Notes under the pieces: generated by a model | The model's database searches: none | Seen by the model: the letters and a program-made list of their open reading frames with translations, nothing else | What the model was told of the DNA's origin: nothing | Shown here: positions 1-12,530 of the stretch, piece by piece | Position numbering within the stretch: the first letter of the stretch is position 1 | How the letters are laid out: each line of letters opens with the position of its first letter | Program-made: the position numbers and the translations under genes | Source of the DNA: a virus | Lineage: Duplodnaviria > Heunggongvirae > Uroviricota > Caudoviricetes | Reading direction: 5' to 3' (one strand) | Virus record (IMG/VR): IMGVR_UViG_2690316318_000016 | Length of the DNA stretch: 13,080 nt

Positions 1-249
1 ATGCGCACACAGGTTGTATTGCAAAAATGGGGTAATAGCATTGCCCTTCGACTAACGGGAAACCTTAAAACCGTTCCGGGTTTTTCAGTGGGTGATATCG
101 TCAACGTTGAAATTAGTGAAAAGGGGCTTTTTGTAGAAAAGCCTGCACGCCGTCGCCTGAGTGAAGCCGAATTACTCGCCGGGATAACGCCAGTTACAGC
201 GCACGCGGACGAAATTGCCACCCCATTCAATGAGGAGGTTGATTACTGA
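1..249 (+). CDS. MazE/PemI-family antitoxin (AbrB/SpoVT-type DNA-binding domain), 82 aa
   Basis: ORF MRTQVVLQKWGNSIALRL... has the WGNS motif and size typical of MazE/ChpS/PemI antitoxins. Its stop overlaps the start of the downstream toxin gene (TGATG, 247-251). The ORF begins at the window edge, so no promoter is visible. Confidence 0.8.
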   Translation: MRTQVVLQKWGNSIALRLTGNLKTVPGFSVGDIVNVEISEKGLFVEKPARRRLSEAELLAGITPVTAHADEIATPFNEEVDY

Positions 250-593
250 TGTTTGTACCTAAGCGTGGTGATATTTGCTGGCTGGATTTTGAGCCGCAGA
301 AAGGAAAAGAGATCGGAAAGTATCGCCCGGCACTCATACTATCCCATGAGCAATATAACCGACTCACCGGGCTTGTCATATGCTGCCCCATAAGTACGAG
401 CATACGAAATGCTCCCACAGAAGTTCCGGTAACAAATCTGGACGCCCCCAGCGTGGTAGCAACCACTCTCATTCAAACCCTTGACTGGCGTCAGCGGAAA
501 GCGCGCTTAATCACAGAGGCAGAAGATGGGGTATTTAATGATGTGCTTGAAAGAGTCATTACCCTGATTGGTGGAGAGCATCTGCTTAAGTAA
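249..593 (+). CDS. MazF/PemK-family endoribonuclease toxin, 114 aa
   Basis: ORF MFVPKRGDICWLDFEPQKGKEIGKYRPALILS... resembles the MazF/ChpB/PemK N-terminus (RGD..W.DF.P..G.E....RPA..LS). Size and position directly after the antitoxin with a 1-nt stop/start overlap fit a type II TA pair. Confidence 0.85.
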   Translation: MFVPKRGDICWLDFEPQKGKEIGKYRPALILSHEQYNRLTGLVICCPISTSIRNAPTEVPVTNLDAPSVVATTLIQTLDWRQRKARLITEAEDGVFNDVLERVITLIGGEHLLK

Positions 594-596
594 AAG

Positions 597-614
597 GAGG
601 GCTGAGAAGCCCTC
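597..614 (-). terminator. Stem-loop between convergent genes (GAGGGCT-gaga-AGCCCTC), followed by UUUU on the minus-strand transcript
   Basis: Perfect 7-bp stem with a 4-nt loop read directly. On the minus strand the hairpin is followed by CUUUUA, so it could terminate the 637-1908 gene; on the plus strand it lies just after the MazF-like stop. Confidence 0.45.
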
Positions 615-636
615 AACGTTACCGGAAATTTCCTTG

Positions 637-1908
637 CTATTCTTTCCAGTCAATCCCATCCAGTAAGCACCCTGCCTCATATTTCCCCACCACCCAGTCA
701 AGGTTACAGGACTCATAGAACGCGAGGCGATTATACTGAGGCTCGTTTTTTACCAGGCCACGAACGGAACCACGCTGCCAGTACAGACACAGATTGGCAA
801 GAGGTGTGATCAATACAGCATTGTCCGGGAAAAATGGAACGGTTACAGCCGGGAGATTCCCCAGAACGGGATTTTTAATGATTTCCTCGTTAAGCAAAAT
901 TTCCTGATTCATCTGCGATGGATCAAGACGGTTTATCAAAGGCCATTGTTTACGGACCAGCGTATTGTGACTGCATACGGCCACAATGCCTTCCTGCCAC
1001 TGTTCATCAATCATGGATTGCCAGGCATCCAGAACGAGCGCATCTATCGTATGGTGTGTACCGCGTGTATTACTTTTCGGTGATGAAACAGAAAGGCCGC
1101 TGATAACCCTTCCCGCCGCTTCATTTCGAAACTTCTGCAACCAGCCCACGCCACAATCGTCACGCCCCGGATATGTTTTAGGGTCAGATTTGGCGGCATA
1201 ATGTGTGCCGTTAAAACCAATCTGAATTAAATCCAGCCATTTCCGGCGTTCAAAAGCGGCCCGCGCACTTCCTTCAAGGCCGTTTGCGGATGCGTGAGCA
1301 TCGGCATTGTCGTAGTTCAACGCAAAATCAAAATTAACCTGCTCGCAGCGGTAGCCCCTTGAAACCAGTGAATGCGCCTGTAGTGGCGAACGGCGCTCGT
1401 GAGGTGGCGATGTACGTGCCAACGGCCCCGAAGCGTCTACCAGCACAACCCGACCTGATATATCCGTAACAGGCACGGGAGTTATTTCAGCAAGGAAATT
1501 TGCCTGCCATCCACTGGCAAGCGTTGCACTCTGGCGAGGAACGGGTTCAACTTCTGACGAATAGCGCGCAGTGTCACCGGAAAAGTGCAAATCCTTCGGA
1601 TGTTTTCCGGTTATCGACTCGATAGCGCAATTGAAAACCATCTGAGCCTGTTGATTTCGTTGTGATACAACAGAATCAGCAGTGCAATTATAACGCTCAA
1701 TGCCGTCGTTATTACCCCCACCGCTTGCAGTATGCAGGGTGTGAAGCTCAAGCTCACGCTCCAGTTTTTGATATTCATTGTCCAGCGCGCGACGCGTCTC
1801 ATCGCTTATGCTTGCTGTGTTTGCTTTCAGGCGATTCCGGGACATTAATCCCCTGAGTCGGCTCACTATATCAGCGCCGTGCAAATGTGGAGTATTCAGA
1901 CCGCCCAT
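637..1908 (-). CDS. Hypothetical protein, 423 aa (start at Met48 of the 470-aa track ORF), unknown function
   Basis: Long open frame in GC-rich DNA. The ATG at 1906-1908 overlaps the TAA of the upstream 236-aa ORF (TAATG), suggesting translational coupling. No Walker A or other motif recognised. The track ORF's first 47 codons (1909-2049) overlap the upstream gene in another frame and are probably not translated. Confidence 0.6.
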   Translation of the reverse strand: MGGLNTPHLHGADIVSRLRGLMSRNRLKANTASISDETRRALDNEYQKLERELELHTLHTASGGGNNDGIERYNCTADSVVSQRNQQAQMVFNCAIESITGKHPKDLHFSGDTARYSSEVEPVPRQSATLASGWQANFLAEITPVPVTDISGRVVLVDASGPLARTSPPHERRSPLQAHSLVSRGYRCEQVNFDFALNYDNADAHASANGLEGSARAAFERRKWLDLIQIGFNGTHYAAKSDPKTYPGRDDCGVGWLQKFRNEAAGRVISGLSVSSPKSNTRGTHHTIDALVLDAWQSMIDEQWQEGIVAVCSHNTLVRKQWPLINRLDPSQMNQEILLNEEIIKNPVLGNLPAVTVPFFPDNAVLITPLANLCLYWQRGSVRGLVKNEPQYNRLAFYESCNLDWVVGKYEAGCLLDGIDWKE

Positions 1909-2618
1909 TACTGCCACCCCCGGCAGAGTTCTCTGCCCTCCGCAAGGTCGCGCATTTTTTCTGGATTCTGTCGCGCCGCGCTCCATTGTACAGGTGAAGG
2001 GGCGTTCCTGATTGCGCGGCTTACCGAATCCGGGAGTTTCTCCGGGCAATAACGCAGCGGGCTGGAGGTGTCGCTTTCGGTATCGTTAATCCGGCCGCGA
2101 ATCATCCCGACACTTTCAGCAGTATCTGTCGCTTTCAGTGTTTCGCATATTTTCTTTTCTGCGTTATACAGCGGCTGGCCAAGCAGCTCACATAAACCAC
2201 GAATCAATAACAGAGCAGGGGTCAGCTCGTTAATCAGTTCGGGAAGTGCTTTTGCAAATATCTCTGCCCGCAACTTATTATCAATGCTTTCGTAAGCACA
2301 ACCAGCCTCTGCCGCGTTATAACGACACTCCAGTAGCCTGATGCGCGCCTCATCATGCAGCACCCGCAGACGCTCAAGATTTTCTCGCGCCACACCCGCC
2401 TGAATGGATAATTTCGCGGAGGCTTCCGTTTTTACGCCCAGCGCAGACAGGATTGAGTTCTGCCAGTCACGATCGAGAGATTCCAGCTCCCCTTTCGTCT
2501 GTTCGATAGTTGCTTCCAGATTGGTGATTAATGATTCCTGTTCACTGAGTTTTGCCATGGCTGTATCAAACTGTGCTTTACATACCTGATGTTCGGCGCT
2601 TGCCTGAGTTATATCCAT
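1908..2618 (-). CDS. Hypothetical coiled-coil protein, 236 aa; possibly a Psu/Sid-like capsid-associated protein (weak, by context only)
   Basis: ORF MDITQASAEHQVCKAQFDTAMAKLSEQESLITNLEATIEQTKGELESL... is rich in E/L/A/K with a heptad-like pattern. It sits in a late-gene-like region near an Ogr/Delta-type activator. The Psu resemblance is from memory and unverified. The last ~45 residues are low-complexity, so a frameshift near 2050 cannot be excluded. Confidence 0.55.
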   Translation of the reverse strand: MDITQASAEHQVCKAQFDTAMAKLSEQESLITNLEATIEQTKGELESLDRDWQNSILSALGVKTEASAKLSIQAGVARENLERLRVLHDEARIRLLECRYNAAEAGCAYESIDNKLRAEIFAKALPELINELTPALLLIRGLCELLGQPLYNAEKKICETLKATDTAESVGMIRGRINDTESDTSSPLRYCPEKLPDSVSRAIRNAPSPVQWSAARQNPEKMRDLAEGRELCRGWQ

Positions 2619-2783
2619 TATTTGCTCCTGTAATACATTTTTTTACTTACGCCGATTTTTTCCATATTGCGTAATACATTCCAGCCGATTTTGTTCTCGT
2701 AATACGCTCACAATACTGTTGTATTACGCTTTCTTATATCGCGGGTGTTAAATCCCGGCATAAACAATCAGGGAGGCAACACG
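2619..2783. promoter_or_regulatory. Divergent intergenic region with direct repeats (GTAATACATT x2, GCCGATTTT x2) and an inverted repeat CGTAATAC-N15-GTATTACG (2698-2728)
   Basis: Repeats read directly from the sequence. The region separates the divergent 236-aa gene and the small RHH-like gene. A GGGAGG ribosome-binding site lies at 2771-2776, upstream of the ATG at 2784. Confidence 0.45.
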
Positions 2784-3017
2784 ATGAAAAAACAAAAGAA
2801 AATGCGATGCGTATTACGCTGTATTCGTATCCCGCACGAAATCGACCATAAAATAAATCAGATATGTCAGGACAGAGAGATGAACTACTCCCAGTGCGTC
2901 AGAATGTTTATCAGTCAGGGAATTAAGGCCGGGGAAAAGCAGGAAGAAGACTGCAACGGGCGCAATGTAGCGGGGGATGTGTGGGCCTGGGCAAATGACC
3001 AGAACCACACGACGTAA
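2784..3017 (+). CDS. Small putative ribbon-helix-helix-like DNA-binding protein, 77 aa
   Basis: ATG at 2784 is preceded by GGGAGG (the track ORF starts 13 codons earlier without a ribosome-binding site). MRCVLRCIRIP followed by two predicted helices fits a strand-helix-helix pattern. Function is not established. Confidence 0.5.
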   Translation: MKKQKKMRCVLRCIRIPHEIDHKINQICQDREMNYSQCVRMFISQGIKAGEKQEEDCNGRNVAGDVWAWANDQNHTT

Positions 3018-3067
3018 TACAGAAATAACGCAGCCGGTCACACTCGCTGGCTGTGTTATACAAATCA

Positions 3068-3250
3068 CTATGAAGTTTTCGACTTCCTGCGCTTAGTAAT
3101 GCGTACAAACGACTCAAGCGTACAAAAACAAGCCCCACACTCAATATTATTGCACTGGTAATACGTTCTGTAGATGTTTTGTTCGTGTTCTTCCAACGAA
3201 CGACCACGGGTGCGGGCTGAAGCGCCACAGGCCGGGCAAGGGAAAGACAT
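3068..3250 (-). CDS. ogr: Ogr/Delta-family zinc-finger late transcription activator, 60 aa
   Basis: ORF MSFPCPACGASARTRGRSLEEHEQNIYRTYYQCNNIECGACFCTLESF has the C-x2-C...(22)...C-x4-C spacing and YxQC motif characteristic of P2 Ogr / P4 Delta. Confidence 0.8.
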   Translation of the reverse strand: MSFPCPACGASARTRGRSLEEHEQNIYRTYYQCNNIECGACFCTLESFVRITKRRKSKTS

Positions 3251-3540
3251 ATCACGCTCCTCTTACTGGTGTGAAATTTAACCTATTATATCTTCTGCCG
3301 CCCCCTCTGGCTGTATCAAATAAACCCGCAGCAGTCGCCGCGTATTACGCACGGGCGCGCCGTTCCCATGCTCACTCGTCACATTCCCCGTATCAGTTCT
3401 CTCTTGCCGTAAGAACGGCTCTGGCTGGCGATAAAACTAACCCGGTCGGGGCATTCCCGCAGCCTTTAGCGAAAATGTAATTTACCCCCTGAAACGCGTG
3501 CTGTTCCCCCGTCACCTGCGCGCGAAAAACTCACCGTTTT

Positions 3541-3639
3541 TTGTGCACGCACGAAATCGCCCTCCGGGCGCGCCAGTACTGGGCCGGATGGGCAAAAAGT
3601 TACTCTAAAAAATTGTGCAAATTTGTGCACTTTTGTGCA
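3541..3639. promoter_or_regulatory. Array of TTGTGCA motifs (3541, 3613, 3623, 3633); the last three phased at exactly 10 bp and forming overlapping GTGCA/TGCAC palindromes
   Basis: Read directly: aTTGTGCAaaTTTGTGCActTTTGTGCAg. Ten-bp phasing puts the sites on one helix face, as in operator or iteron arrays. The region is GC-rich and noncoding-looking, between the ogr-like gene and the iteron cluster. Confidence 0.4.
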
Positions 3640-3865
3640 GATGAACAACAGCGTCAAAAAGAGTGCTTTTGAGAGATTTTTTATGGCAACTGCGCCGCGT
3701 GTATTACGTTTTTTACCATCCCCGCCGCGCATGTACATACTTCATTTTTCTGCCAAACAACAGGGCAACTCCCCGTGACTGACAGCCCCAAAAAAATCAA
3801 TGATTGATGTTGCATTTTTGTTAGAGGTCAGGCCAGTTGTTTTGGGGCTCTGCCTCATAATCCGG

Positions 3866-4184
3866 TGGGGGGTGCGCAAAGCGGTTACAACGGTTACAAC
3901 CCCAAAAAACACCACATAACAATATGATTTTAATGAATATTATTTGTAACCGCTTTGCGGTTACACTGCGGTTACAACGGTTACAGGTTTCAGAAAGTTA
4001 TTTATTATCAATCAGTTAAAAACTTAACTTGTAACCGCCTGTAACCTAACAAAACGGTTACATGTAACCGCGTTGTAACCGCTTTTGTAACTCATCGGAC
4101 CAGTTGTAATATGTTGATATATAATATAAAAATAAGTGATTTTAAATTTGTAACCGTTGTAACCGCTTTGCGCAACCCCCCCCG
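3866..4184. repeat. Iteron cluster: at least 13 copies of GGTTACA/TGTAACC (many extended to GCGGTTACA) in both orientations, AT-rich spacers, bounded by a perfect 26-bp inverted repeat (3874-3899 and 4148-4173); putative replication origin
   Basis: Repeats and the inverted repeat were checked base by base. A perfect 9-3-9 palindrome TGTAACCGC-ttt-GCGGTTACA lies at 3945-3965. The architecture (short iterons in both orientations plus an AT-rich stretch) parallels the P4 ori/crr bound by alpha protein, and it sits just downstream of the primase/helicase-integrase operon. Confidence 0.5.
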
Positions 4185-4381
4185 GACTTTAGCGCGACTC
4201 TTTAAAATGTTAATTAAACACACTTACTCTGTTTCACTCTCATTAACTCTCTGTAATTGAAATGTGCCTCGCCACTGCTTGACTCTTTCTGGTAATCAGG
4301 GGAGGGAGAGCAAAAAAATTGATGGCGACACCGCTGCAATATGGCCGCCATTGCATTGCTGTTACTGTTGGTTCTGGCCAA

Positions 4382-4416
4382 CAAAAAAGGCCAGTGGAAA
4401 ACTGACCTCTTTTGCT
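4382..4416 (-). terminator. Weak candidate terminator downstream of the P2-type integrase (imperfect hairpin flanked by an A-run and a T-run)
   Basis: acAAAAAAggccagtggaaaactgacctcTTTTgc; the stem has a mismatch, so this is low confidence. Confidence 0.3.
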
Positions 4417-4437
4417 GTGAATGTGGCGTTCTGCGGG

Positions 4438-5439
4438 TTACTCTGCAGGCTCTTTTTGTCCGGTAAATACCATGTCGGCTACCGGGTTAAATCTCATGGC
4501 ATCTGCCAGATAGTCGGGAGAAAAATGCGCATAAGTCATCGTTTGCTGAATAGTGGCATGTCCCAGAATCCGTTGCAGGGTAACGATGTTTCCCCCGTTC
4601 ATCATGAAATGCGTGGCGAACGTATGACGCATCACATGAGTCGCCTGCCCTTTTGGCAAATCAGGCTTCACCTCCTGGAGGATCTCGCGAAACCGGAGAT
4701 AATCGACCTCGTACAGCGGCCCGGTTCGGCGGGTTTTAATCAGCGAGAGCACGGCATCAGACACCGGAACCGAACGGGACTTCCCGTTCTTGGTGTTGAA
4801 GAACGTCACGCGATTACCGACGATATGCTCTCCGCATAATTCCGCCGCCTCACCCCACCGCGCCCCCGTAGAAAGACACAGAATGGCGACACGACGCGCA
4901 TCACCTTCGAGTCGTTCAAGAAGCCGCTCAATCTCATCATCAGAAAGAAAGGCCATCTCTGTATTCTGAATTTTTAGCTTACGTATATTGCGCACGGGGT
5001 TCGGGTTGTGAAAGCTCCCTGCTTCAATCAACACCGTGAACATGGTAGACAGAACGCATAAATCACGATTAATACTGGACGGCATTAATCCGGCCTGTAA
5101 TTTCTCTGACCGATATTCAAGCATAAATTTTCGCGTCATCTGACTGGCGCGAGGATCTCTCATTTCACGAATCACTTTCTCCAGCCGGATCCTGTAGGTA
5201 TCGCCGTAAGCCTGATTGCGCCCGTCAAGCATCCACCATGTATCAAGCAACTCTGATAATCGCCGCCGATCAGCAGGTTTAGCCAGCCATGGGTTATTAT
5301 GGAAATTCTGCAAAACATATTGTTCGAACTTCTCTGCACTTCCTTTCCGGGCAAAAATTTTACGTATCCGTTTGCCGTATGCCCCTTGCGGCCTGATATC
5401 TAGCAACCATCTTCCATCATCCATCTTTCTGATCGACAT
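4438..5439 (-). CDS. int: Tyrosine recombinase, P2-type integrase family, about 333 aa
   Basis: C-terminal catalytic region LPKGQATHVMRHTFATHFMMNGGNIVTLQRILGHATIQQTMTYAHF (HxxR, GH and catalytic Y) and box I STGARWGEAAEL closely resemble P2 Int as recalled. Start chosen at the ATG at 5437-5439 (MSIRK...) because an AAGGAGA ribosome-binding site precedes it and it lies 2 nt after the primase stop; the track start at 5475 overlaps the primase. Confidence 0.9.
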   Translation of the reverse strand: MSIRKMDDGRWLLDIRPQGAYGKRIRKIFARKGSAEKFEQYVLQNFHNNPWLAKPADRRRLSELLDTWWMLDGRNQAYGDTYRIRLEKVIREMRDPRASQMTRKFMLEYRSEKLQAGLMPSSINRDLCVLSTMFTVLIEAGSFHNPNPVRNIRKLKIQNTEMAFLSDDEIERLLERLEGDARRVAILCLSTGARWGEAAELCGEHIVGNRVTFFNTKNGKSRSVPVSDAVLSLIKTRRTGPLYEVDYLRFREILQEVKPDLPKGQATHVMRHTFATHFMMNGGNIVTLQRILGHATIQQTMTYAHFSPDYLADAMRFNPVADMVFTGQKEPAE

Positions 5440-5441
5440 AC

Positions 5442-8111
5442 TTAAGGTCTCTCCTTGTAACTGAATATCCGGCATTTCAGCACTTCCGGCTCTCTGGCTT
5501 CGGCTACCCCTTTTCCGGCGTTTGCCTGTCTGGACACCTCACTACGAATTGTTTTACGACCTGTCAACGGTCGGGAGCGTCCAGCCCCGAGCAACTCAAT
5601 CATTTCGCGATCGGTTCGGATCTCCACGCGGTGAATGGCGGCTGCCTGTGCCAGTTGCGGAATACTGATAGCAATCCCTTCGCGGCATCCCTTGCCGTAG
5701 TGGTTTACACCGTATTTTGTTATGCCGTCCAGGAAGTCGAACGCCTCCCAGAATTCCACCACTTCCGGTAAATCAGCCGCCGCCGCTTTAACCTGCGCTG
5801 TTGCCATTTGTTCCAGTTCCAGACATGTGGCATCAAGCCATTCATCCGGGATATCGATAACGCATTTCAGCGCCCTGACCAGCGCGATAATTTGCGCGTG
5901 ATTTTTGGCGATACGGGGATGGCGAATATTTTCGCAGCCGCAAAGGCGTTCCGTTTCAGCTGGCGACACTTCCAGGAACGTTTGCATAATCGCCCGTTCC
6001 TGACTTACCGCCCGATGAATAAACCCCGATACCTTCTCGACGGGGTAGAGTTCCAGCCGTCTTGCCGCCAGTCGGGTATCAGGTGAATGGCGTTTTTTGT
6101 CGGTGTAGATGCGTATCAGGCGCTCAATAATTGCCGGAGAGGCGTTTACCCGCGCATTCTGCGCAATCACGATAGCGCCCTTAAAATCCGGGTCATAGGT
6201 GTTGTTATTGTTGGCTTTAACACCACGAACGCCGATACCACCGCCGTTATAGAGACTTTTCAGGTTATCGAAGTCAAACGCACCTCTTTTTTGCGCATTG
6301 TCTCCCCGGTCCGCTTCAATCAGAACAACAGGTAATCCGGCGACCTGTCCAAAGGTGCGCTTCCAGCCCGCCTCTGATCCTTTGGTTGGATCAACGCCTT
6401 CATAGTTGTCACGACCGCACAACCGCCAGCAAAAATCAATCAATGTTGATTTACCCGTTCCGGGTTCCCCGGTGACTTCAAGGAAGGGGAAGGATTCTTC
6501 TTTATCCCGGATTTGTTCGCTGAACAGGGAGCCCAACCAGAAAGCCAGGGTAATAATTCCCTTTTCACCAAAAGCCAGCCAGAGATCTTCCACCCAGGAC
6601 TCTGTAAACTCATCCGTTTTTTTGTAGTTAATCTGTAATGTGGGTTTTTCGCTTAATGGTTTTGCGTTTATGCCATCAATTTCAAAATAATCCTCATCAT
6701 TGATTTCATAAGTTTTACCCTTGTAAACGGCAATATCATTAAACAGCCATGCCCCAATTCCCTTGTTGTATCCGATAAAATCCTGACCAATAACCTCTTT
6801 TATTGCGGGAAGGTCATTTTTTATTAATGCGTCAAGCTGCGTAGTCGTTCCGGTATAAATACCACCTTTTGCCACGTGCAGCAGGCGTTTTTTAAATTCA
6901 GATGAGGATGTTAATTGTCCTGATGTAAAGGTGTTTTTCACCGTAGCACCATCCGGGAATGTAACGCGGAAGTAATACCATGCTTCATCCGTGTCATTGT
7001 TTCGAATGTAATAAAGCGGCACTGGGTTACAGTTTGCGATTTCTTTTACAGCGCCGGATTCCTTAAGTGCAATTTTTCGCGCTTCATCTTCGTCAACACT
7101 TCGCTCATTAATGACACGTTCAACAGCCTTCATATAGCGCTCAATATCCAGCTTGAACCAGAAAACACGGTTATCAAAGGTAAAATAAAACTCCTTCCGC
7201 TCACGAAAGGAAAATATTATCAGCGCCTTATCTCTCGGCGATTTCGCCAGCAATAAATCACCGTAATAACGGTATCTTTTCACATCATGGCCACGCAGCT
7301 TTCCGGCGATGTGTAAATCATTCCAGTCGCGTTTATTGTTGTTTTTACCTGGCAACGCCGCTGCCGTTCTCCAGCCGTCTTCGGCGCTGCGTTCTGCATG
7401 TTTTTTCGCGTAACGTTCACCCGCACGCCCGTTATCCAGGGCCCACACAATAACCGGACGGGGATTATCCCCGCACAGCTTCGCCAGCTCTTCCAGCGCC
7501 TTATCAGGGTAGTTCACGGCAGACATGACAGAAACGGCCGCAATGCCATTCTGGTTAAGGCTGATGGCATCAAAGATGCCCTCACAAATCCAGATTTCTT
7601 TGGCCTTGCTTAAATCTGCTCCCGGATAAGCCCACCACAACCCCTTGTAGCTGCCGGAAAAATTCGCCTTGCGCGCGAAGCGTCCCGGTCGGTCTATGAT
7701 GCGCTCCCACCACACGCCGTCAGCCAGCGTAAAACGCACAGTAGCGGCCTGTTCGCCGCTTTCCTTGTCCTGGTATCGCTCCTGAGTAAATGCGCCCTTC
7801 AGTGGCCCCACAGCAATATTGCGCGCTTCCTGAAGATAAGCTGCCGCCGCTGCATATGGCTCATCTTTCGTGCTGATATAACGATCTGACCATGATGAAA
7901 ACACATCCGGGTAAAGTTCTTTGGTCAGCAGGTCTGTACCGCATTTATTTTCGCGCCCACAGTGTACGATGTACGGCTTCTCAAGACTGGTAAACAGTTC
8001 TTTCTTTCCACATTGCGGACAAACACCATAGCGAAGATAGTTATTTTCTTCTTTAAAGTTGTAATCACGGATAAGACGGTTAATAATCTCTTTTCTGGTG
8101 TTATTTTTCAT
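5442..8111 (-). CDS. P4 alpha-like DNA primase/helicase (zinc ribbon + TOPRIM-type primase + P-loop NTPase), about 889 aa
   Basis: N-terminal zinc-binding motif CPQCGKK...HCGRENKCG; TOPRIM-like WICEGIFDAISL; Walker A TGEPGTGKST and Walker B VVLIEAD. Start placed at the ATG at 8109-8111 (MKNNTRK...); the track's GTG start at 8132 would translate the poly-C tract. Confidence 0.9.
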   Translation of the reverse strand: MKNNTRKEIINRLIRDYNFKEENNYLRYGVCPQCGKKELFTSLEKPYIVHCGRENKCGTDLLTKELYPDVFSSWSDRYISTKDEPYAAAAAYLQEARNIAVGPLKGAFTQERYQDKESGEQAATVRFTLADGVWWERIIDRPGRFARKANFSGSYKGLWWAYPGADLSKAKEIWICEGIFDAISLNQNGIAAVSVMSAVNYPDKALEELAKLCGDNPRPVIVWALDNGRAGERYAKKHAERSAEDGWRTAAALPGKNNNKRDWNDLHIAGKLRGHDVKRYRYYGDLLLAKSPRDKALIIFSFRERKEFYFTFDNRVFWFKLDIERYMKAVERVINERSVDEDEARKIALKESGAVKEIANCNPVPLYYIRNNDTDEAWYYFRVTFPDGATVKNTFTSGQLTSSSEFKKRLLHVAKGGIYTGTTTQLDALIKNDLPAIKEVIGQDFIGYNKGIGAWLFNDIAVYKGKTYEINDEDYFEIDGINAKPLSEKPTLQINYKKTDEFTESWVEDLWLAFGEKGIITLAFWLGSLFSEQIRDKEESFPFLEVTGEPGTGKSTLIDFCWRLCGRDNYEGVDPTKGSEAGWKRTFGQVAGLPVVLIEADRGDNAQKRGAFDFDNLKSLYNGGGIGVRGVKANNNNTYDPDFKGAIVIAQNARVNASPAIIERLIRIYTDKKRHSPDTRLAARRLELYPVEKVSGFIHRAVSQERAIMQTFLEVSPAETERLCGCENIRHPRIAKNHAQIIALVRALKCVIDIPDEWLDATCLELEQMATAQVKAAAADLPEVVEFWEAFDFLDGITKYGVNHYGKGCREGIAISIPQLAQAAAIHRVEIRTDREMIELLGAGRSRPLTGRKTIRSEVSRQANAGKGVAEAREPEVLKCRIFSYKERP

Positions 8112-8119
8112 ATATAAAT

Positions 8120-8159
8120 CCCCCCCCCCCACTGCACCTTTTGCAGTGGGGTTTTTATT
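8120..8159. promoter_or_regulatory. 11-nt homopolymeric C tract (8120-8130) plus a 10-bp GC-rich stem-loop (CCCCACTGCA-ccttt-TGCAGTGGGG, 8127-8151) followed by TTTTTATT, just upstream of the primase start
   Basis: Read directly. On the plus strand it looks like an intrinsic terminator. On the minus-strand mRNA the hairpin and G-run sit 8 nt upstream of the primase AUG, where a G-run could act as the Shine-Dalgarno. Confidence 0.45.
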
Positions 8160-8463
8160 AATTACTCGTTACTTCTTGTTTCCGGGCAATCCCTGCGGCT
8201 TCAGCTTTGTGCCATGAAAAAATTCCGCCAGATAAATGCATACCAGATTTAATCGTTTGTAATTCTCTATAAATAATGTTAGACAGAGATACAATTTCTT
8301 CATTTATAATTTCTGCTGATGCTCCGCCATTTTTATCGCCAAAGACTACAGATATTAAACTGACGAGATTAATCACATCTGCGAGATCTTCCTTTGCACT
8401 TTCTGTAAAAAAGCCAACATATTCTCTATCTAAAATATTTTCGCTATTCTGACGTTTAGACAT
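8158..8463 (-). CDS. Hypothetical protein, 101 aa, AT-rich
   Basis: ORF with a GGGAG ribosome-binding site 6 nt upstream of the ATG at 8463. Composition is visibly more AT-rich than the neighbouring primase and small-ORF genes. No recognisable motif. Confidence 0.55.
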   Translation of the reverse strand: MSKRQNSENILDREYVGFFTESAKEDLADVINLVSLISVVFGDKNGGASAEIINEEIVSLSNIIYRELQTIKSGMHLSGGIFSWHKAEAAGIARKQEVTSN

Positions 8464-8530
8464 AAAAACTCCCCGACCCGTTAAGGTCGAAATATAAATT
8501 GAATTCAGTTATCAGTGGGTAATTCGGGAA

Positions 8531-8749
8531 TCAGGCGGAAAGCTGCGTAACCTTCAACGCCCTGAAATGTGTCATTCCCAGCTCTTCCAGCCCTTCGGCT
8601 GCGCGGCGTATGGCTTCGCCCGGCCCCGTTCCGTATACCGTTGCGTGTGCATGTTTGGTTAACCCGCGCTTATTAACGGCATAACCCAACACAAAGAAAC
8701 ATTTTTCACCACTGCCATTATTTTTACGGGATGTTGAACGGGTTTTCAT
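8531..8749 (-). CDS. Hypothetical small protein, 72 aa
   Basis: ATG overlaps the stop of the upstream ORF (ATGA, 8746-8749); AGGTGA ribosome-binding site upstream. Confidence 0.5.
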   Translation of the reverse strand: MKTRSTSRKNNGSGEKCFFVLGYAVNKRGLTKHAHATVYGTGPGEAIRRAAEGLEELGMTHFRALKVTQLSA

Positions 8750-8934
8750 TTCTTCACCTTTACCACTGATGCTGTGAGTTCTTCTTCTGGTAATTTATAT
8801 TTCGGCGCAATTTCTTCCGTATACCTGATAGCGTCCCTTGCCGCTTTTCCTTTTGATTTATATTTATATGTGGTGCGGTAGTTTTCTTCCTCTCCTGTTA
8901 CCACATTACGCAATTTAATATGAATCTCGTACAT
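8746..8934 (-). CDS. Hypothetical small protein, 62 aa (MYEIHIKL...)
   Basis: Start at the internal ATG at 8934 with a strong GGAGGGG ribosome-binding site, 2 nt after the upstream stop; the longer track start lacks a ribosome-binding site. Confidence 0.55.
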   Translation of the reverse strand: MYEIHIKLRNVVTGEEENYRTTYKYKSKGKAARDAIRYTEEIAPKYKLPEEELTASVVKVKK

Positions 8935-8936
8935 CG

Positions 8937-9119
8937 TTACCCCTCCATGATTTTTACTGCGCATTTGTGGGTTAATCGCCCCTGTTTGTCATTGCGGGAA
9001 TATGCCATACGACAGGCATCACGCCATGCATCGTCATAAGTCGGATATTCCCAGGAATGAATCATCTGGCGAACGTCGCCGTTCTGGTAGTTAATCAGGG
9101 TGATAAGGAGCTTAAACAT
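8937..9119 (-). CDS. Hypothetical small protein, 60 aa (MFKLLITLINYQNGD...)
   Basis: Start at the ATG at 9119 with a GGGAGG ribosome-binding site; overlaps the upstream ORF's end by 8 nt (ATGTTTAA). Confidence 0.55.
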   Translation of the reverse strand: MFKLLITLINYQNGDVRQMIHSWEYPTYDDAWRDACRMAYSRNDKQGRLTHKCAVKIMEG

Positions 9120-9285
9120 GGCACGCCTCCCGGACACGGATACGGGCAACAAAGACCAGACGGGATGCCGGAAGCATGGCGCGCGCTTCGCGCTCACTGG
9201 CTGCGGTAACGGTATGAAGGCGAATATTTTTACCGTGGCACTGCATAAAGCGCCAGATAAAATCAGGGCGTGTTGATATAGCCAT
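9112..9285 (-). CDS. Hypothetical small protein, 57 aa (MAISTRPDFIWRFMQCHGKNIRLH...)
   Basis: Internal ATG at 9285 preceded by a GGAG ribosome-binding site. The 175-aa track ORF extends to 9639, but its N-terminal part looks non-protein-like and would cover the leader and promoter region. Confidence 0.45.
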   Translation of the reverse strand: MAISTRPDFIWRFMQCHGKNIRLHTVTAASEREARAMLPASRLVFVARIRVREACHV

Positions 9286-9643
9286 TTTGGCGGCTCCTCT
9301 AACTGATTTACGGAGTCTCGCCAGCACGCTGCTAAACATGGTGGCGGGACGTAACAGGGTTAGCAGACTGGCGTTAGAGAAACCAGCGAGCGCAAAGGCT
9401 CCCCCATTACGCCCCGCCATAATACGGGGTAGGGTGGAATTACGGGCACAAAAAAACCGCATTACGGAAATATAGCGGCTACCCGCTCTAACAATCAGGC
9501 TGCTAAACCCGGCACCTGTTTTATGAGGTGCGGGCAAACGATACGCCATGACAAAAAAGCGAGTCAAGAAAAATTGCAAATTATTTTGGCGATATTGCGC
9601 TGAGTTATTGATTTTTAAGAGTAAAAAAGTCATAATCATTTCT

Positions 9644-9731
9644 GCCTATTGTTTCTTATTGTTGGTTTCAGGTGCATTAAATGCACATCCTTGACTGGTT
9701 GGCTCGCTGGCTTTAGCGAGCTTCTTTTTTT
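9644..9731 (+). ncRNA. Candidate small RNA of about 90 nt: sigma70-like promoter (TTGATT 9608-9613, 17-nt spacer, CATAAT 9631-9636), internal palindrome GTGCATT-a-AATGCAC (9672-9686), intrinsic terminator (GCTCGCT-ggcttt-AGCGAGC + T8, 9702-9731)
   Basis: All elements read directly. The terminator is unambiguous for the plus strand (hairpin followed by TTCTTTTTTTT). The promoter assignment is by eye. No plus-strand protein gene ends here. Confidence 0.3.
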
Positions 9732-9833
9732 TGCTCTGCTGTCAGCGCCCGACCTCTCCCCCTCACGTGTAGCAACGTGTTCACATCAGTAAGTTTTGCC
9801 GCCAAGCGATGGGCTGCAATAAGCCGCCCGGGC

Positions 9834-10154
9834 TTATTCAACTCTGGCGCTACCGGATTCCCTCTCCCTTTTCTTTTTGGCGTTTTCGTATGGGTTATTC
9901 ACTTTGGCAATAACTGGCGGATTACGTAGCCACCACAAAACATCACTTAACAGCCAGGTACATGAGCAACGCCCCAAAGAGTGACGGGGAGGAAAAGCAC
10001 CGATCTTCTCCAGTTCCCAGCGCCGGGAGCGTGAAAGCGTGGTCATTTTTTTACACTTCTCTTCCCTGATGCGTTCTTCGCAGTCAAAACCATACTCGGC
10101 GAGTATGGTGCGGCGCTGTTCTGGAGTTGGTGGAATGAATGCGGATTGAGTCAT
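9834..10154 (-). CDS. alpA: AlpA-family phage transcriptional regulator (HTH), 106 aa
   Basis: Core TTLSRSRRWELEKIGAFPP...LGRCSCTWLLSDVLWWL matches the AlpA/prophage CP4-57 regulator pattern. GGGGGA ribosome-binding site upstream of the ATG at 10154. The N-terminal ~35 residues are an extension relative to 70-aa AlpA. Confidence 0.8.
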   Translation of the reverse strand: MTQSAFIPPTPEQRRTILAEYGFDCEERIREEKCKKMTTLSRSRRWELEKIGAFPPRHSLGRCSCTWLLSDVLWWLRNPPVIAKVNNPYENAKKKRERESGSARVE

Positions 10155-10249
10155 ATTTCCCCCTATGTTTCTGAACTTTCGGGGGAGATTTTTGTTTTAC
10201 GGGGTTTTGAAAGCAAGTATTAAAGGTCTTATTAAGATGCTTGCTGGTC

Positions 10250-11302
10250 TTACTGAGATGATGCCTTAATCCATCTTGATATAGTACTTTTATCAAAGCG
10301 CATATTGAGTCCTGCCTCTTTTGCTTCCGCGGTCAATATATCAGCAAGTTTTACCGGATTGTTTTCGAGTTCTTTATAATGAATAACAAGCATCGCACGA
10401 AAAAAATCCTTCATTGTTTTAGATAATCGTTCTATATTGTTTTTATTGGTGCATATATCTTTCTCTCCATCCTCAGAGCTTAATATATTGTTACCCGCAC
10501 ACAAATATAAAGTGTCTGCCAATGGATTAACATAATCTTTTCTTAACTCGCTATTGAAGCTTGTAGCATTTTGTATTTTTAAAAAATCACTCTTTAAGAT
10601 ATATAAATCACCAATATCAAAAGAAACATCCTCAGTAACAATTACTCCTATATGTATATCAACGTCAGAAGCAATTATAATATTGCTATTAATTATTCGG
10701 TTGGCTTTAAACTTCTTATTAAAATCATAGTTGGCAAAAAAACTTCTCCCCAAAGCGAAAATGCCGCCTATTTCAACAAAATACTTATGGTATTTTTCTT
10801 GAATACCTTTAAATACTGGTGGTACAACTGCCACAGCTCTTTCATCCGTTGCTATTCGATATACACTATATATGTGATAATTTTCCCCATAATATAACCC
10901 CCTGTTATAATAATTTAACAAAGCAAATGCAGTATCAATTGCTATGTCACCAAATTTGGGCGCTACATATGAATGACTTAGAGATTCGCACATTGAATCA
11001 AATATAATTCTCGACTTGGTTTTTATATAATTAAAACCATGGTGTTCTGCCGCCCTTTCTGAAATGGCATCAAGGTCAGATAACCGTGATTTACATGGTT
11101 CTGAATCCAGAAACTTACGCAGACAATCGAAATTAACCACATCTTTTTCATCTGGGATATTTAATACTCCATATGCAGATTCAATTTTTATACAAATACG
11201 AATGCAGCCTGTCACAGCCCAATGAATAAGATCATCAATATCGCAATCTAATAACTTTGCCGCGCGCTCAATAGGATAGTAATCTCTTAGTGGTAACGTC
11301 AT
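10250..11302 (-). CDS. Hypothetical protein, 350 aa, strongly AT-rich orphan gene in the integrase-alpA cargo slot; possible HTH-like segments at both termini
   Basis: Single uninterrupted ORF in DNA visibly far more AT-rich than the rest of the element; it starts 17 bp after the integrase stop. N-terminal PIERAAKLLDCDIDDLIHWAVTGCI and C-terminal FDKSTISRWIK resemble HTH segments; the central ~250 aa has no recognisable motif. Confidence 0.7.
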   Translation of the reverse strand: MTLPLRDYYPIERAAKLLDCDIDDLIHWAVTGCIRICIKIESAYGVLNIPDEKDVVNFDCLRKFLDSEPCKSRLSDLDAISERAAEHHGFNYIKTKSRIIFDSMCESLSHSYVAPKFGDIAIDTAFALLNYYNRGLYYGENYHIYSVYRIATDERAVAVVPPVFKGIQEKYHKYFVEIGGIFALGRSFFANYDFNKKFKANRIINSNIIIASDVDIHIGVIVTEDVSFDIGDLYILKSDFLKIQNATSFNSELRKDYVNPLADTLYLCAGNNILSSEDGEKDICTNKNNIERLSKTMKDFFRAMLVIHYKELENNPVKLADILTAEAKEAGLNMRFDKSTISRWIKASSQ

Positions 11303-11318
11303 TCTTTTCGCTCACATA

Positions 11319-12518
11319 TTATTTATCTTTAACCATTTTTTCTAAACATTCAAGCCAGTCATTTAGAGCCTTTAATTTGAATGGGATATACTGGCTAAGA
11401 TTATAGTTAAATTCTGCGGAGCCAGCATTATATACGTGACCTAATAATGACTCGACAATATGAGGCATTACCCCCATGTTGTTTAACCCAGTTGAAAATG
11501 TCCGTCTTAAATCGTGTAGCGTCCATTTTTCATTATGTCCGAATATTTTATACATTCTGCGACCTTTCAGAGAAACAGCTCTATGCGTTCTCTCCTCACC
11601 CAAAAGTAAGCCCGTCCTCCCGGTTTCCTGTTTTAGCTCTTTTAACCAGTCTCTTATACCTTCGGGAATTGGCCGAATAATCTTTTTGTTACTTTTACTG
11701 TTATTTCTTGGAACAATCCAAACCCATTCATTAAAATCCCATTCAATCCAATGAGAACGGCGAATCTCTACAGTTCTAGCCCCAAAGACAATAAGCAACT
11801 TTATTAATCTAGAAAAATAAATATCCCGATGTTTCTCCTTTGCAAAATACCAAAGATCTGATAGTTCGGCATCACTCAAAACACGGTCGCGCTGTCCGGC
11901 AGATTCCCCTACATCGGTTAACGTTAAATGAACAAGGGCATCACTGATGGCATAACGCCGAACATTGCAAAACCGCAATGCCTGTTTGGAGAGTTGAAAC
12001 ATACGCCCCGCCGTTTTTGAACTTATAGCGCGAATCTCATCAAAACATTTTACCCAATGGCGAGTATCGCACCGTGATAACGGATAATGGCCTATTCTGG
12101 GGTAGACATGTTTGCAGAATTGCGCCCTAATCAATTCCTCATCTTTGCGCTTATGTCTTGCATAATTGACCAACCAATATTCCAACGCATCTCGAACAGT
12201 AACAGGAGCACGGGATTCTTCAGTAAAAAGTTGGAGTTCAATTTTTGGATCAAGACCATTAGCCAACCATTGACGGCAACGCTCACGCCACATCCTGGCA
12301 TCTTTCAGACTAATATCAGGGTAATTCCCTAGAGTAAGACGAATAACTGAACTCTCACGCCCTCCAAGGCGATATGAAAAAACCCAGCTCACATGCCCTT
12401 TAGTTGATAACCTGACCCCTAACCCCTCTCCGTCAGCAAGCATTTCAACACGATCCCTATGCGTTCCTTGCAGCGCCTTTAGTTTCCTGTCGCTGAGCTT
12501 ATTCGTTCCAGACATCAT
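11319..12518 (-). CDS. int: P4-type tyrosine integrase (DUF4102-like N-terminal arm-binding domain + phage integrase catalytic domain), about 399 aa
   Basis: N-terminus KLSDRKLKALQG...GEGLGVRLSTKGHVSWVFSYRLGGRE...LTLGNYPDISLKDAR matches the P4 integrase-family N-terminal domain. C-terminus HDLRRTFSTGL...LLGHV carries the HxxR and GH motifs. Start placed at the ATG at 12516-12518 (the track start is GTG at 12521). Confidence 0.9.
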   Translation of the reverse strand: MMSGTNKLSDRKLKALQGTHRDRVEMLADGEGLGVRLSTKGHVSWVFSYRLGGRESSVIRLTLGNYPDISLKDARMWRERCRQWLANGLDPKIELQLFTEESRAPVTVRDALEYWLVNYARHKRKDEELIRAQFCKHVYPRIGHYPLSRCDTRHWVKCFDEIRAISSKTAGRMFQLSKQALRFCNVRRYAISDALVHLTLTDVGESAGQRDRVLSDAELSDLWYFAKEKHRDIYFSRLIKLLIVFGARTVEIRRSHWIEWDFNEWVWIVPRNNSKSNKKIIRPIPEGIRDWLKELKQETGRTGLLLGEERTHRAVSLKGRRMYKIFGHNEKWTLHDLRRTFSTGLNNMGVMPHIVESLLGHVYNAGSAEFNYNLSQYIPFKLKALNDWLECLEKMVKDK

Positions 12519-12530
12519 CACCGTTCCGAT

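Follow-up and report, generated by a model that had tools for sequence, protein, structure and literature searches.

The 13,080-nucleotide (nt) stretch of DNA analysed here, IMG/VR virus record IMGVR_UViG_2690316318_000016 (the window), is a P4-like satellite of Escherichia coli (E. coli) with its integration site between hpt and gcd, and it carries beside its immunity module a predicted small-RNA cassette on the plus strand. The cassette is located 3' of an AlpA/Vis-like regulator gene, within the 195-nt spacer ahead of the next reading frame, and consists of a sigma-70-like promoter site, a short palindrome and an intrinsic terminator (Table 1). In related islands the promoter block is retained in front of three different RNA bodies, all of them closed by a terminator. 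The interpretation that we put forward, tentatively, is that the product may be a cis-antisense RNA against the leader of an eta-like open reading frame (ORF) on read-through transcripts.

The initial annotation of this DNA had proposed a short plus-strand RNA made up of the promoter TTGATT-17-CATAAT, a GTGCATT-A-AATGCAC stem-loop and a terminator with a 7-bp stem and T8, and all three elements were found where it had placed them. The annotated genes from 637 to 12521 are all on the minus strand, in agreement with its statement on the flanking genes. It had assigned the element to the leader of the alpA operon, whereas the element actually lies downstream of the AlpA-like gene. The candidate promoter has a 17-nt spacer and matches the consensus at 9 of 12 positions. 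In the predicted fold, the RNA has a U-rich single-stranded 5' third followed by a 6-bp hairpin and the terminator; as a whole it is not unusually stable (z = -1.15 to -1.7).

The terminator was examined by a strict scan of the whole window on both strands, in which at least 7 perfect pairs, at least 4 of them G-C, and at least 7 T in 9 were required. Two sites were returned in 26 kb of strand, compared with 0.045 expected from 200 Markov simulations, and the terminator is far beyond chance. It has the G+C-rich perfect stem, the short loop and the one-strand U-tract of an intrinsic terminator. Read on the reverse strand, the hairpin has A8 before it and CAACCAGUC after it, and because the latter is no U-tract, the terminator is expected to act on the plus strand only, in line with the initial annotation, which had called it unambiguous.

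The absence of the element from related islands, which had been named beforehand as grounds for giving up the RNA, was not what we found. The promoter block is present in 66 of the 5426 complete E. coli genomes, 57 of which also carry the RNA body of the window at 81–100% identity. Strains NCTC9082, FDAARGOS_1299 and ETEC4067 are among the carriers. Adding the pattern matches from IMG/VR and metagenomes gave 29 related instances with 23 distinct sequences; for loci L011–L038 the 20-nt invariant block, which contains TTGATT, doubled as the search pattern. The same TTGATT-17-CATAAT precedes three body types, A, A' and B, and each is closed by a plus-strand-only terminator 60–90 nt downstream of the promoter block. 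Type A is the version in the window. In type A' (L017), the first 15 nt and the terminator are retained, but another hairpin (GUCAG..CUGAC) takes the place of the palindrome. In type B (8 instances), the similarity to A ends at 9642/9643, two to three nt past the eta start codon, and a different body of 65–70 nt follows, from which the palindrome is absent. The type B terminator (CGGCCCG..CGGGCCG and a T-run, again on the plus strand only) ends approximately 10 nt short of the stop codon of a capsid-like gene that converges on it, and cannot be aligned with that of type A. No further body types were found in the metagenome and IMG/VR pattern scans, in which four matches were unrelated chance ones.

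In the type A sequences, variable columns make up 0.24 of the 5' part (7 of 29 positions), 0.13 of the palindrome, 0.00 of the linker, 0.00–0.14 of the terminator stems and 0.33 of the loop, compared with 0.49–0.82 of the 100 nt downstream, so the body is more constrained than the downstream flank. The terminator loops vary while the stems stay: the type A stem is invariant save for G9709 to A, which turns G.U into A-U, and a stem change in the type B terminator of L013 reads as U.G in plus-strand RNA and as C-A in minus-strand RNA. Between types A and B, all 12 hexamer positions of the promoter are invariant, compared with 10 of 17 variable spacer positions, although CATAAT coincides with the eta start codons and TTGATT with the block used as the search pattern.

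The reading frame next to the candidate is labelled by PGAP as 'host cell division inhibitor Icd-like protein' (173–175 amino acids). Judged from its layout, it is an eta/kil-type nested frame that holds a promoter and two RNA genes: it starts 5' of the constitutive promoter, has the seqA and CI genes inside it, and ends in a Kil/Icd-like C-terminus formed by the last 57 codons (ATG 9285 to stop 9112). The frame is open in all 24 distinct ORF versions, with 0 in-frame stops versus 5–15 in each other frame, and in one relative a 1-nt deletion is offset by a nearby insertion that restores it. The match to NF033153 is limited to residues 127–169 here and to residues 161–208 in the P4 ORF 8812–8168, the last 65 codons of which are kil. 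The ORF begins with ATG ATT ATG (9639–9631), so that 9639 and 9633 are possible starts, and its Shine-Dalgarno sequence in type A is a weak AGG (9645–9647).

According to PMC10111431, which summarises Forti et al. 1999, P4 eta begins 5' of the constitutive promoter, and its translation requires transcripts initiated at the upstream late promoter PLL. This translation, which is said to be coupled to that of the alpA homologue vis, prevents immunity-dependent termination, and the replication genes and the toxic Kil part are then expressed (PMC10111431). The ORF of the window shares this nested architecture. It differs in that the P4 ORF begins at 8812 inside vis, which ends at 8764, whereas here 195 nt lie between the alpA stop (9834) and the eta start (9639), a distance that does not fit P4-type translational coupling, and this spacer carries the candidate RNA. 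The promoter/terminator scan found no minus-strand terminator-like site between alpA and 9640, and because of this and of the P4 precedent, alpA transcripts are presumed to cross the candidate RNA locus and to reach the eta-like ORF.

The sequence shows the signals, their persistence in front of differing bodies, the eta-like ORF and the geometry of the locus; from these we infer transcription from G9644, pairing in vivo and an effect on eta that could proceed as follows. A sigma-70 promoter within the first ten eta codons would fire constitutively and away from the immunity promoter; the two promoters are divergent and back-to-back, with 40 bp between their -35 hexamers. The product would be a non-coding RNA of approximately 87 nt, stopped by the strong intrinsic terminator, which would shield alpA/int (type A) or the capsid-like gene (type B) from antisense transcription. 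The RNA would match without a gap or mismatch the complement of the untranslated leader immediately ahead of the eta start codon. This leader would be present only on read-through transcripts, which come from alpA/int in type A and from the capsid operon in type B. In type A, the pairing would end 5 nt before AUG 9639 and cover AGG 9645–9647; it might block 30S binding or create a substrate of RNase III, and a polymerase sitting at the promoter might obstruct incoming polymerases by collision. The translation of eta would then be blocked on low-level read-through transcripts and the Kil-like product would stay silent. Because the translation of P4 eta lets upstream transcripts ignore CI/C4 immunity, the RNA would hold such leaky read-through under immunity, and only strong activation of the upstream operon would bypass it.

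The other strict terminator of the window (8127–8151, then T5) also faces the plus strand and is also preceded by a promoter-like site, at the primase gene (Table 1). The chance of a 9/12 promoter-like site 50–110 nt 5' of both strict terminators is approximately 0.002, a figure that rests on 18 promoter-like sites in 26 kb of strand and is optimistic given the local AT-richness. At this sibling site, the relatives have two non-homologous hairpins, both with T-rich tails and one with a U.G pair that forms on the plus strand only. The hairpin of the window separates the orf101 stop (8158–8160) from the ribosome-binding site of primase; nothing of the kind is found where alpha starts in P4. It is conceivable, but on the whole unlikely, that this satellite family has a second RNA layer on its P4-type immunity, in which two cassettes antisense to the eta leader and to the primase start would impose a threshold on two steps by which the element commits itself to replication, namely the escape from C4/CI termination through eta and the synthesis of primase. 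The C-run at 8119–8130, which is a G-run on the primase mRNA beside the Shine-Dalgarno sequence, varies from approximately 4 to 12 C among the islands and could alter the hairpin or the spacing.

Several observations weigh against the cis-antisense RNA. Promoter matches of 9/12 are no commoner than chance (5 found versus 5.7 expected from shuffles, in 2.5 kb), and the candidate promoter has no extended -10. The invariance of its hexamers is confounded by the eta start codons and by the search-pattern block, and since CATAAT is the reverse complement of the ATT ATG of eta, the conservation of the -10 alone is no proof of a promoter. Neither the palindrome nor the terminator helix has compensatory changes among the relatives, which have diverged too little for them; the changes in the palindrome are only one-sided or loop-closing. 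In type B, the RNA would not cover the Shine-Dalgarno sequence GGGA if it starts, as predicted, at the G that lies 8 nt after the -10. The plus-strand unit is without a counterpart in P4. Meanwhile, the hairpin at 8127–8151 can also be explained on the minus strand by translational coupling between orf101 and primase, so that the A-tract and the hairpin may serve the mRNA. The short plus-strand RNA of the initial annotation is partly supported: it gains from the conserved promoter block with three terminator-closed bodies, from the lack of an ORF or Rfam alternative and from the sibling unit at 8059–8160, and loses by the confounded -10 and the palindrome without covariation.

The main rival explanation dispenses with a functional RNA. 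The hexamers would then be N-terminal codons of eta, the U-rich body would be the complement of an A-rich leader, the hairpins would serve the minus-strand mRNA in processing, stability or coupling, and the terminator would at most act as an insulator, keeping antisense transcripts begun spuriously in AT-rich DNA out of alpA/int or the capsid gene. In keeping with this, CATAAT is the ATT ATG of an ORF that is open in all relatives, the homology between types A and B breaks at the start of this ORF, the invariant block reaches past the -35, the minus-strand leader is A-rich in both types, the plus-strand helices are without covariation support, and the hairpin between the orf101 stop and the G-run Shine-Dalgarno sequence of primase has a classical coupling layout. 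However, the run of 8–9 A directly 5' of a G+C hairpin on the mRNA in two non-homologous bodies, which is the signature of a plus-strand terminator (0.045 expected per window), is left unexplained. The wobbles of L013 and L001 can form only in plus-strand RNA, a promoter-like site is found at the right distance from both strict terminators, and an insulating terminator itself implies plus-strand initiation nearby. We consider this explanation somewhat unlikely, and continue with the cis-antisense RNA as the preferred one.

A comparison with RNA families, suggested in the initial annotation, was made with Rfam 15; the gathering threshold was applied to the whole window and a cut-off of E <= 10 to 9300–10100. 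It returned no plus-strand family at the gathering score for the candidate RNA; the best plus-strand scores, those of suhB/mmgR (20.9 bits) and Trp leader (17.9 bits, gathering score 41 each), are terminator-like noise. No description of an RNA at this position was found in the literature search or in Rfam. Membership of the candidate in the C4/P4 CI family was rejected, as the RF01695 match is elsewhere and on the minus strand (9337–9424) and the variants of the candidate do not co-vary with the a/b sites. The candidate RNA variants occur with three different C4 specificities. A pairing of the candidate with C4 or its a/b targets (7 bp, GGUUGGC to GCUAACC, seen by eye) was likewise rejected, since one RNA variant is found with three C4 specificities.

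Targets in trans were sought as ungapped complementary runs, compared with shuffled controls, in the island and in phage P2; a duplex-folding scan of the island had given only meaningless full-length duplexes and was replaced by this test. None was found above chance, the longest runs being 13 nt in the island and 12–13 nt in P2, within the shuffle range; the initial annotation had suggested a search for complementarity to the leaders of the island operons and to helper-phage transcripts. This result bears on the possibility that the candidate is a trans-acting, probably Hfq-binding small RNA with host or helper-phage mRNAs as the partners of its U-rich 5' region. Its predicted anatomy is typical of such RNAs: the 5' region is U-rich and single-stranded, a small hairpin comes next, and the terminator ends in a long run of U. 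A loosely similar U-rich motif (GUUUCUUAUUG / GUUUUCUUUUG / UUAUUCUUAAUG) is present in all three body types. Yet 7 of the 29 positions of this 5' region are variable within type A. Because the body is exchanged wholesale between islands with near-identical flanking immunity modules, and because no Rfam family, conserved peptide, target in the island or in P2, or co-variation with the C4/a/b specificity was found, a seed-type regulator acting in trans is disfavoured, and we regard it as improbable.

Alternatively, the terminator could belong to a longer plus-strand transcript, antisense to the C4 and isrK RNAs, with its origin further upstream, such as at 9235–9263. A 9/12 plus-strand promoter-like site (GTGGCA-17-TAAAAT) is indeed located there, and the terminator would halt any plus-strand transcript. 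This site, however, falls within the conserved kil coding part, where it cannot be assessed independently, and a weak terminator-like site (9585–9604) intervenes. The distance from 9608–9636 to the terminator, moreover, is kept at 60–90 nt in three body types. Nothing comparable is described for P4 or P1 in the literature consulted (PMC10111431), and we judge a longer transcript to be very improbable.

A small plus-strand protein encoded by ORF 9548–9694 or 9649–9792 was also considered, as two mechanical ORFs of 47–48 codons overlap the region. Both are without a Shine-Dalgarno sequence; ORF 9649–9792 traverses the terminator and, in L005-type sequences, lacks its TTG start. Length variation of the T-run and the C-run breaks the frames, and type B has stops in all frames, which makes such a protein an exceedingly slight prospect. 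No conserved peptide was found on either strand across the relatives. The minus-strand ORF 9841–9713 (42 amino acids, TTG start) was rejected, as its frame is broken by the length changes of the C-run and the T-run.

The candidate can be compared with short antisense RNAs of temperate elements. The OOP RNA of lambda, of approximately 77 nt, has its own sigma-70 promoter and a strong intrinsic terminator and is cis-antisense to a neighbouring message, whose 3' part it overlaps at the end of the cII coding sequence. The candidate resembles it as a predicted short self-contained RNA opposite a regulatory operon of a temperate element; it differs in that its overlap would be confined to untranslated sequence, namely the spacer and the ribosome-binding region of the following ORF, and in that it has no sequence similarity to OOP. 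The sar RNA of P22, encoded in the immI region, is antisense to a translation initiation region and covers the ribosome-binding site and start codon of ant. Similarly, the candidate would be a small antisense RNA within an immunity region, facing the initiation region of a downstream gene on the transcript from an upstream promoter. Here, however, the eta start codon is upstream of the predicted start of the candidate, and the immunity is of the P1 c4/P4 CI type rather than the Mnt/Arc type. In hok/mok/sok and in RNA-OUT of IS10, the promoter of the antisense RNA lies within or beside the 5' end of the target ORF, and the RNA prevents the translation of a leader or of an overlapping frame that a toxic product needs for its expression. 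The candidate promoter also lies inside the 5' end of its would-be target ORF, and the Kil/Icd-like sequence is the C-terminal part of eta; unlike in those systems, there are no fold-back or processing elements of the hok mRNA, the start codon is outside the pairing region, and the toxicity of the Kil-like part is putative.

With the CI RNA of P4 and the C4 RNA of P1/P7 (RF01695), together with seqA/isrK (RF01394), the candidate shares its locus and its regulatory circuit; it differs in being on the opposite strand and 5' of the immunity promoter and in lacking similarity to C4. In the plasmid and phage collections, no counterpart of the plus-strand unit was found in P1-like plasmids or in phages P1/P7, where only the c4 part matches. 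More distant c4-bearing satellites in E. coli chromosomes (L021–L025) have plus-strand genes of the YlcI/YnfO family divergent from the c4 module instead. The candidate, if real, would seem restricted to a small E. coli satellite lineage and akin in function to the short self-contained antisense RNAs of temperate elements. The distant satellites also have tandem C4 copies, and their YlcI/YnfO-family genes are preceded by inverted repeats (GTGTAAGACAC/GTGTCTTACAC) that are operator-like in look.

RNA-based immunity has its textbook case in P4. If confirmed, an antisense RNA directed at the eta leader would be a previously undescribed checkpoint on the escape from P4-type immunity, and it would show how satellites tune silent carriage against helper-triggered replication. 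If the locus is only an insulating terminator beside an accidental promoter, the finding is ordinary. In either case its annotation changes, as the 175-amino-acid 'Icd-like protein' becomes an eta/kil-type frame hiding two RNA genes and a promoter.

The layout of the immunity module is identical in order to that of P4, namely vis, PLE, isrK-like leader and CI. By their family matches, the minus-strand C4 and isrK-like RNAs are those that really provide immunity in this island. The initial annotation had considered a regulatory RNA plausible beside P4-type immunity, and P4-type immunity RNAs are indeed present, but on the minus strand at 9337–9531, where it had overlooked them. The C4 RNA region is approximately 80% identical to the c4 region of P1/P7. 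In relatives L001–L038, the C4 loops (a', b') co-vary with the a1/b1 sites of the isrK-like leader and with the a2/b2 sites. The latter (9285–9330, minus strand) are located just 5' of the kil start ATG 9285, which has the Shine-Dalgarno sequence GAGGAG. At least eight a-variants and two b-variants were seen, giving many immunity specificities within one satellite family. No IHF or P2-type late-promoter motifs (TGT-N12-ACA) were seen by eye between the two divergent promoters. Midway between their -35 hexamers, the octamer at 9585–9592 is hypervariable (GCGATATT, GCGCGCTT, GCTCACTT, GTGCAATT, GCGCGATT and others). Both its flanks are invariant, it falls in codons 16–18 of the eta-like frame, and it has no strict tie to the C4 specificity.

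Table 1. Positions of the predicted RNA cassettes, the immunity module and neighbouring genes in the window.
Feature	Position	Strand	Remarks
-35-like hexamer TTGATT	9608–9613	+	inside codons 9–11 of the eta-like ORF
-10-like hexamer CATAAT	9631–9636	+	minus-strand reading ATT ATG, codons 2–3 of the eta-like ORF
Predicted non-coding RNA, ~87–89 nt	9644–9732	+	start predicted at G9644, 8 nt after the -10; 3' end predicted inside T8
Internal palindrome GTGCATT-A-AATGCAC	9672–9686	+	predicted to fold as 6-bp hairpin GUGCAU-UAA-AUGCAC
Terminator stem-loop GCTCGCT-GGCTTT-AGCGAGC	9702–9721; 9701–9722 with G.U pairs	+	7 perfect pairs (5 G-C), 9 with G.U; loop 4–6 nt
Terminator U-tract TC + T8	9723–9732 (T8 at 9725–9732)	+	T6 to T9 among islands
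Sibling promoter-like site TTGTAA-17-AATAAT	8059–8087	+	40 nt before the terminator; inside the first codons of the primase gene
Sibling predicted RNA, ~65 nt	~8094–8158	+	would cover the primase start codon (8110–8112) and G-run Shine-Dalgarno sequence
Immunity promoter (PLE-like) TTGACT-18-TATCGT	9567–9538	-	predicted start 9531, position 1 of the isrK model; 35/36 positions invariant
seqA / a1b1 / isrK-like leader RNA with its own terminator	9531–9450	-	Rfam RF01394, 52.2 bits (gathering score 50); RF03163, 33.8 bits
C4 / P4-CI-type immunity antisense RNA	9424–9337	-	Rfam RF01695, 72.9 bits, E = 5.5e-13
eta/kil-like nested ORF, 175 codons	9639–9112	-	PGAP label 'Icd-like'; traverses the immunity promoter and the isrK and C4 RNA genes
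AlpA/Vis-like regulator gene	9834–10154	-	Pfam PF05930, E = 3.3e-07; also annotated in L001
Integrase	12521–11319	-	first in the minus-strand gene order

In the minus-strand gene order, the integrase is followed by an unknown 350-amino-acid gene, the AlpA/Vis-like regulator, the immunity module, small genes and a toprim primase. A protein search of the genome contigs with the AlpA-like protein found one locus only. Parts of the cargo and layout (1–593, 637–2618, 4438–5475) are unlike P4: a MazE/PemK toxin-antitoxin pair adjoins hpt, a P2-family major-capsid-like gene has a 236-amino-acid partner, an Ogr/Delta-like zinc-finger gene is present, and a second integrase is found directly 3' of the primase. 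In type B islands, the capsid-like pair is placed between alpA and the immunity module instead. At 3861–4186, TTGTAACCGC recurs as an iteron-like repeat in either orientation, together with an inverted repeat of 39 nt (95% complementary), and the segment is probably the replication origin or the crr equivalent.

Between the terminator of the candidate and alpA, another hairpin is found at 9764–9780 (CACGTG-tagcaa-CGTG), which becomes CACATG..CATGTG or CACATG..AATGTG in relatives; these changes are compensatory. It is accompanied on the plus strand by a C-rich tract (9745–9760), the minus-strand reading of which is GAGGGGGAGAGG. The 10-mer CCAGTCAAGG occurs three times in the window, at 479–488 (minus strand), 694–703 (plus strand) and 9689–9698 (minus strand, inside the candidate RNA); three matches were reached in only 3 of 200 shuffles. 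The recurrence may be due to chance.

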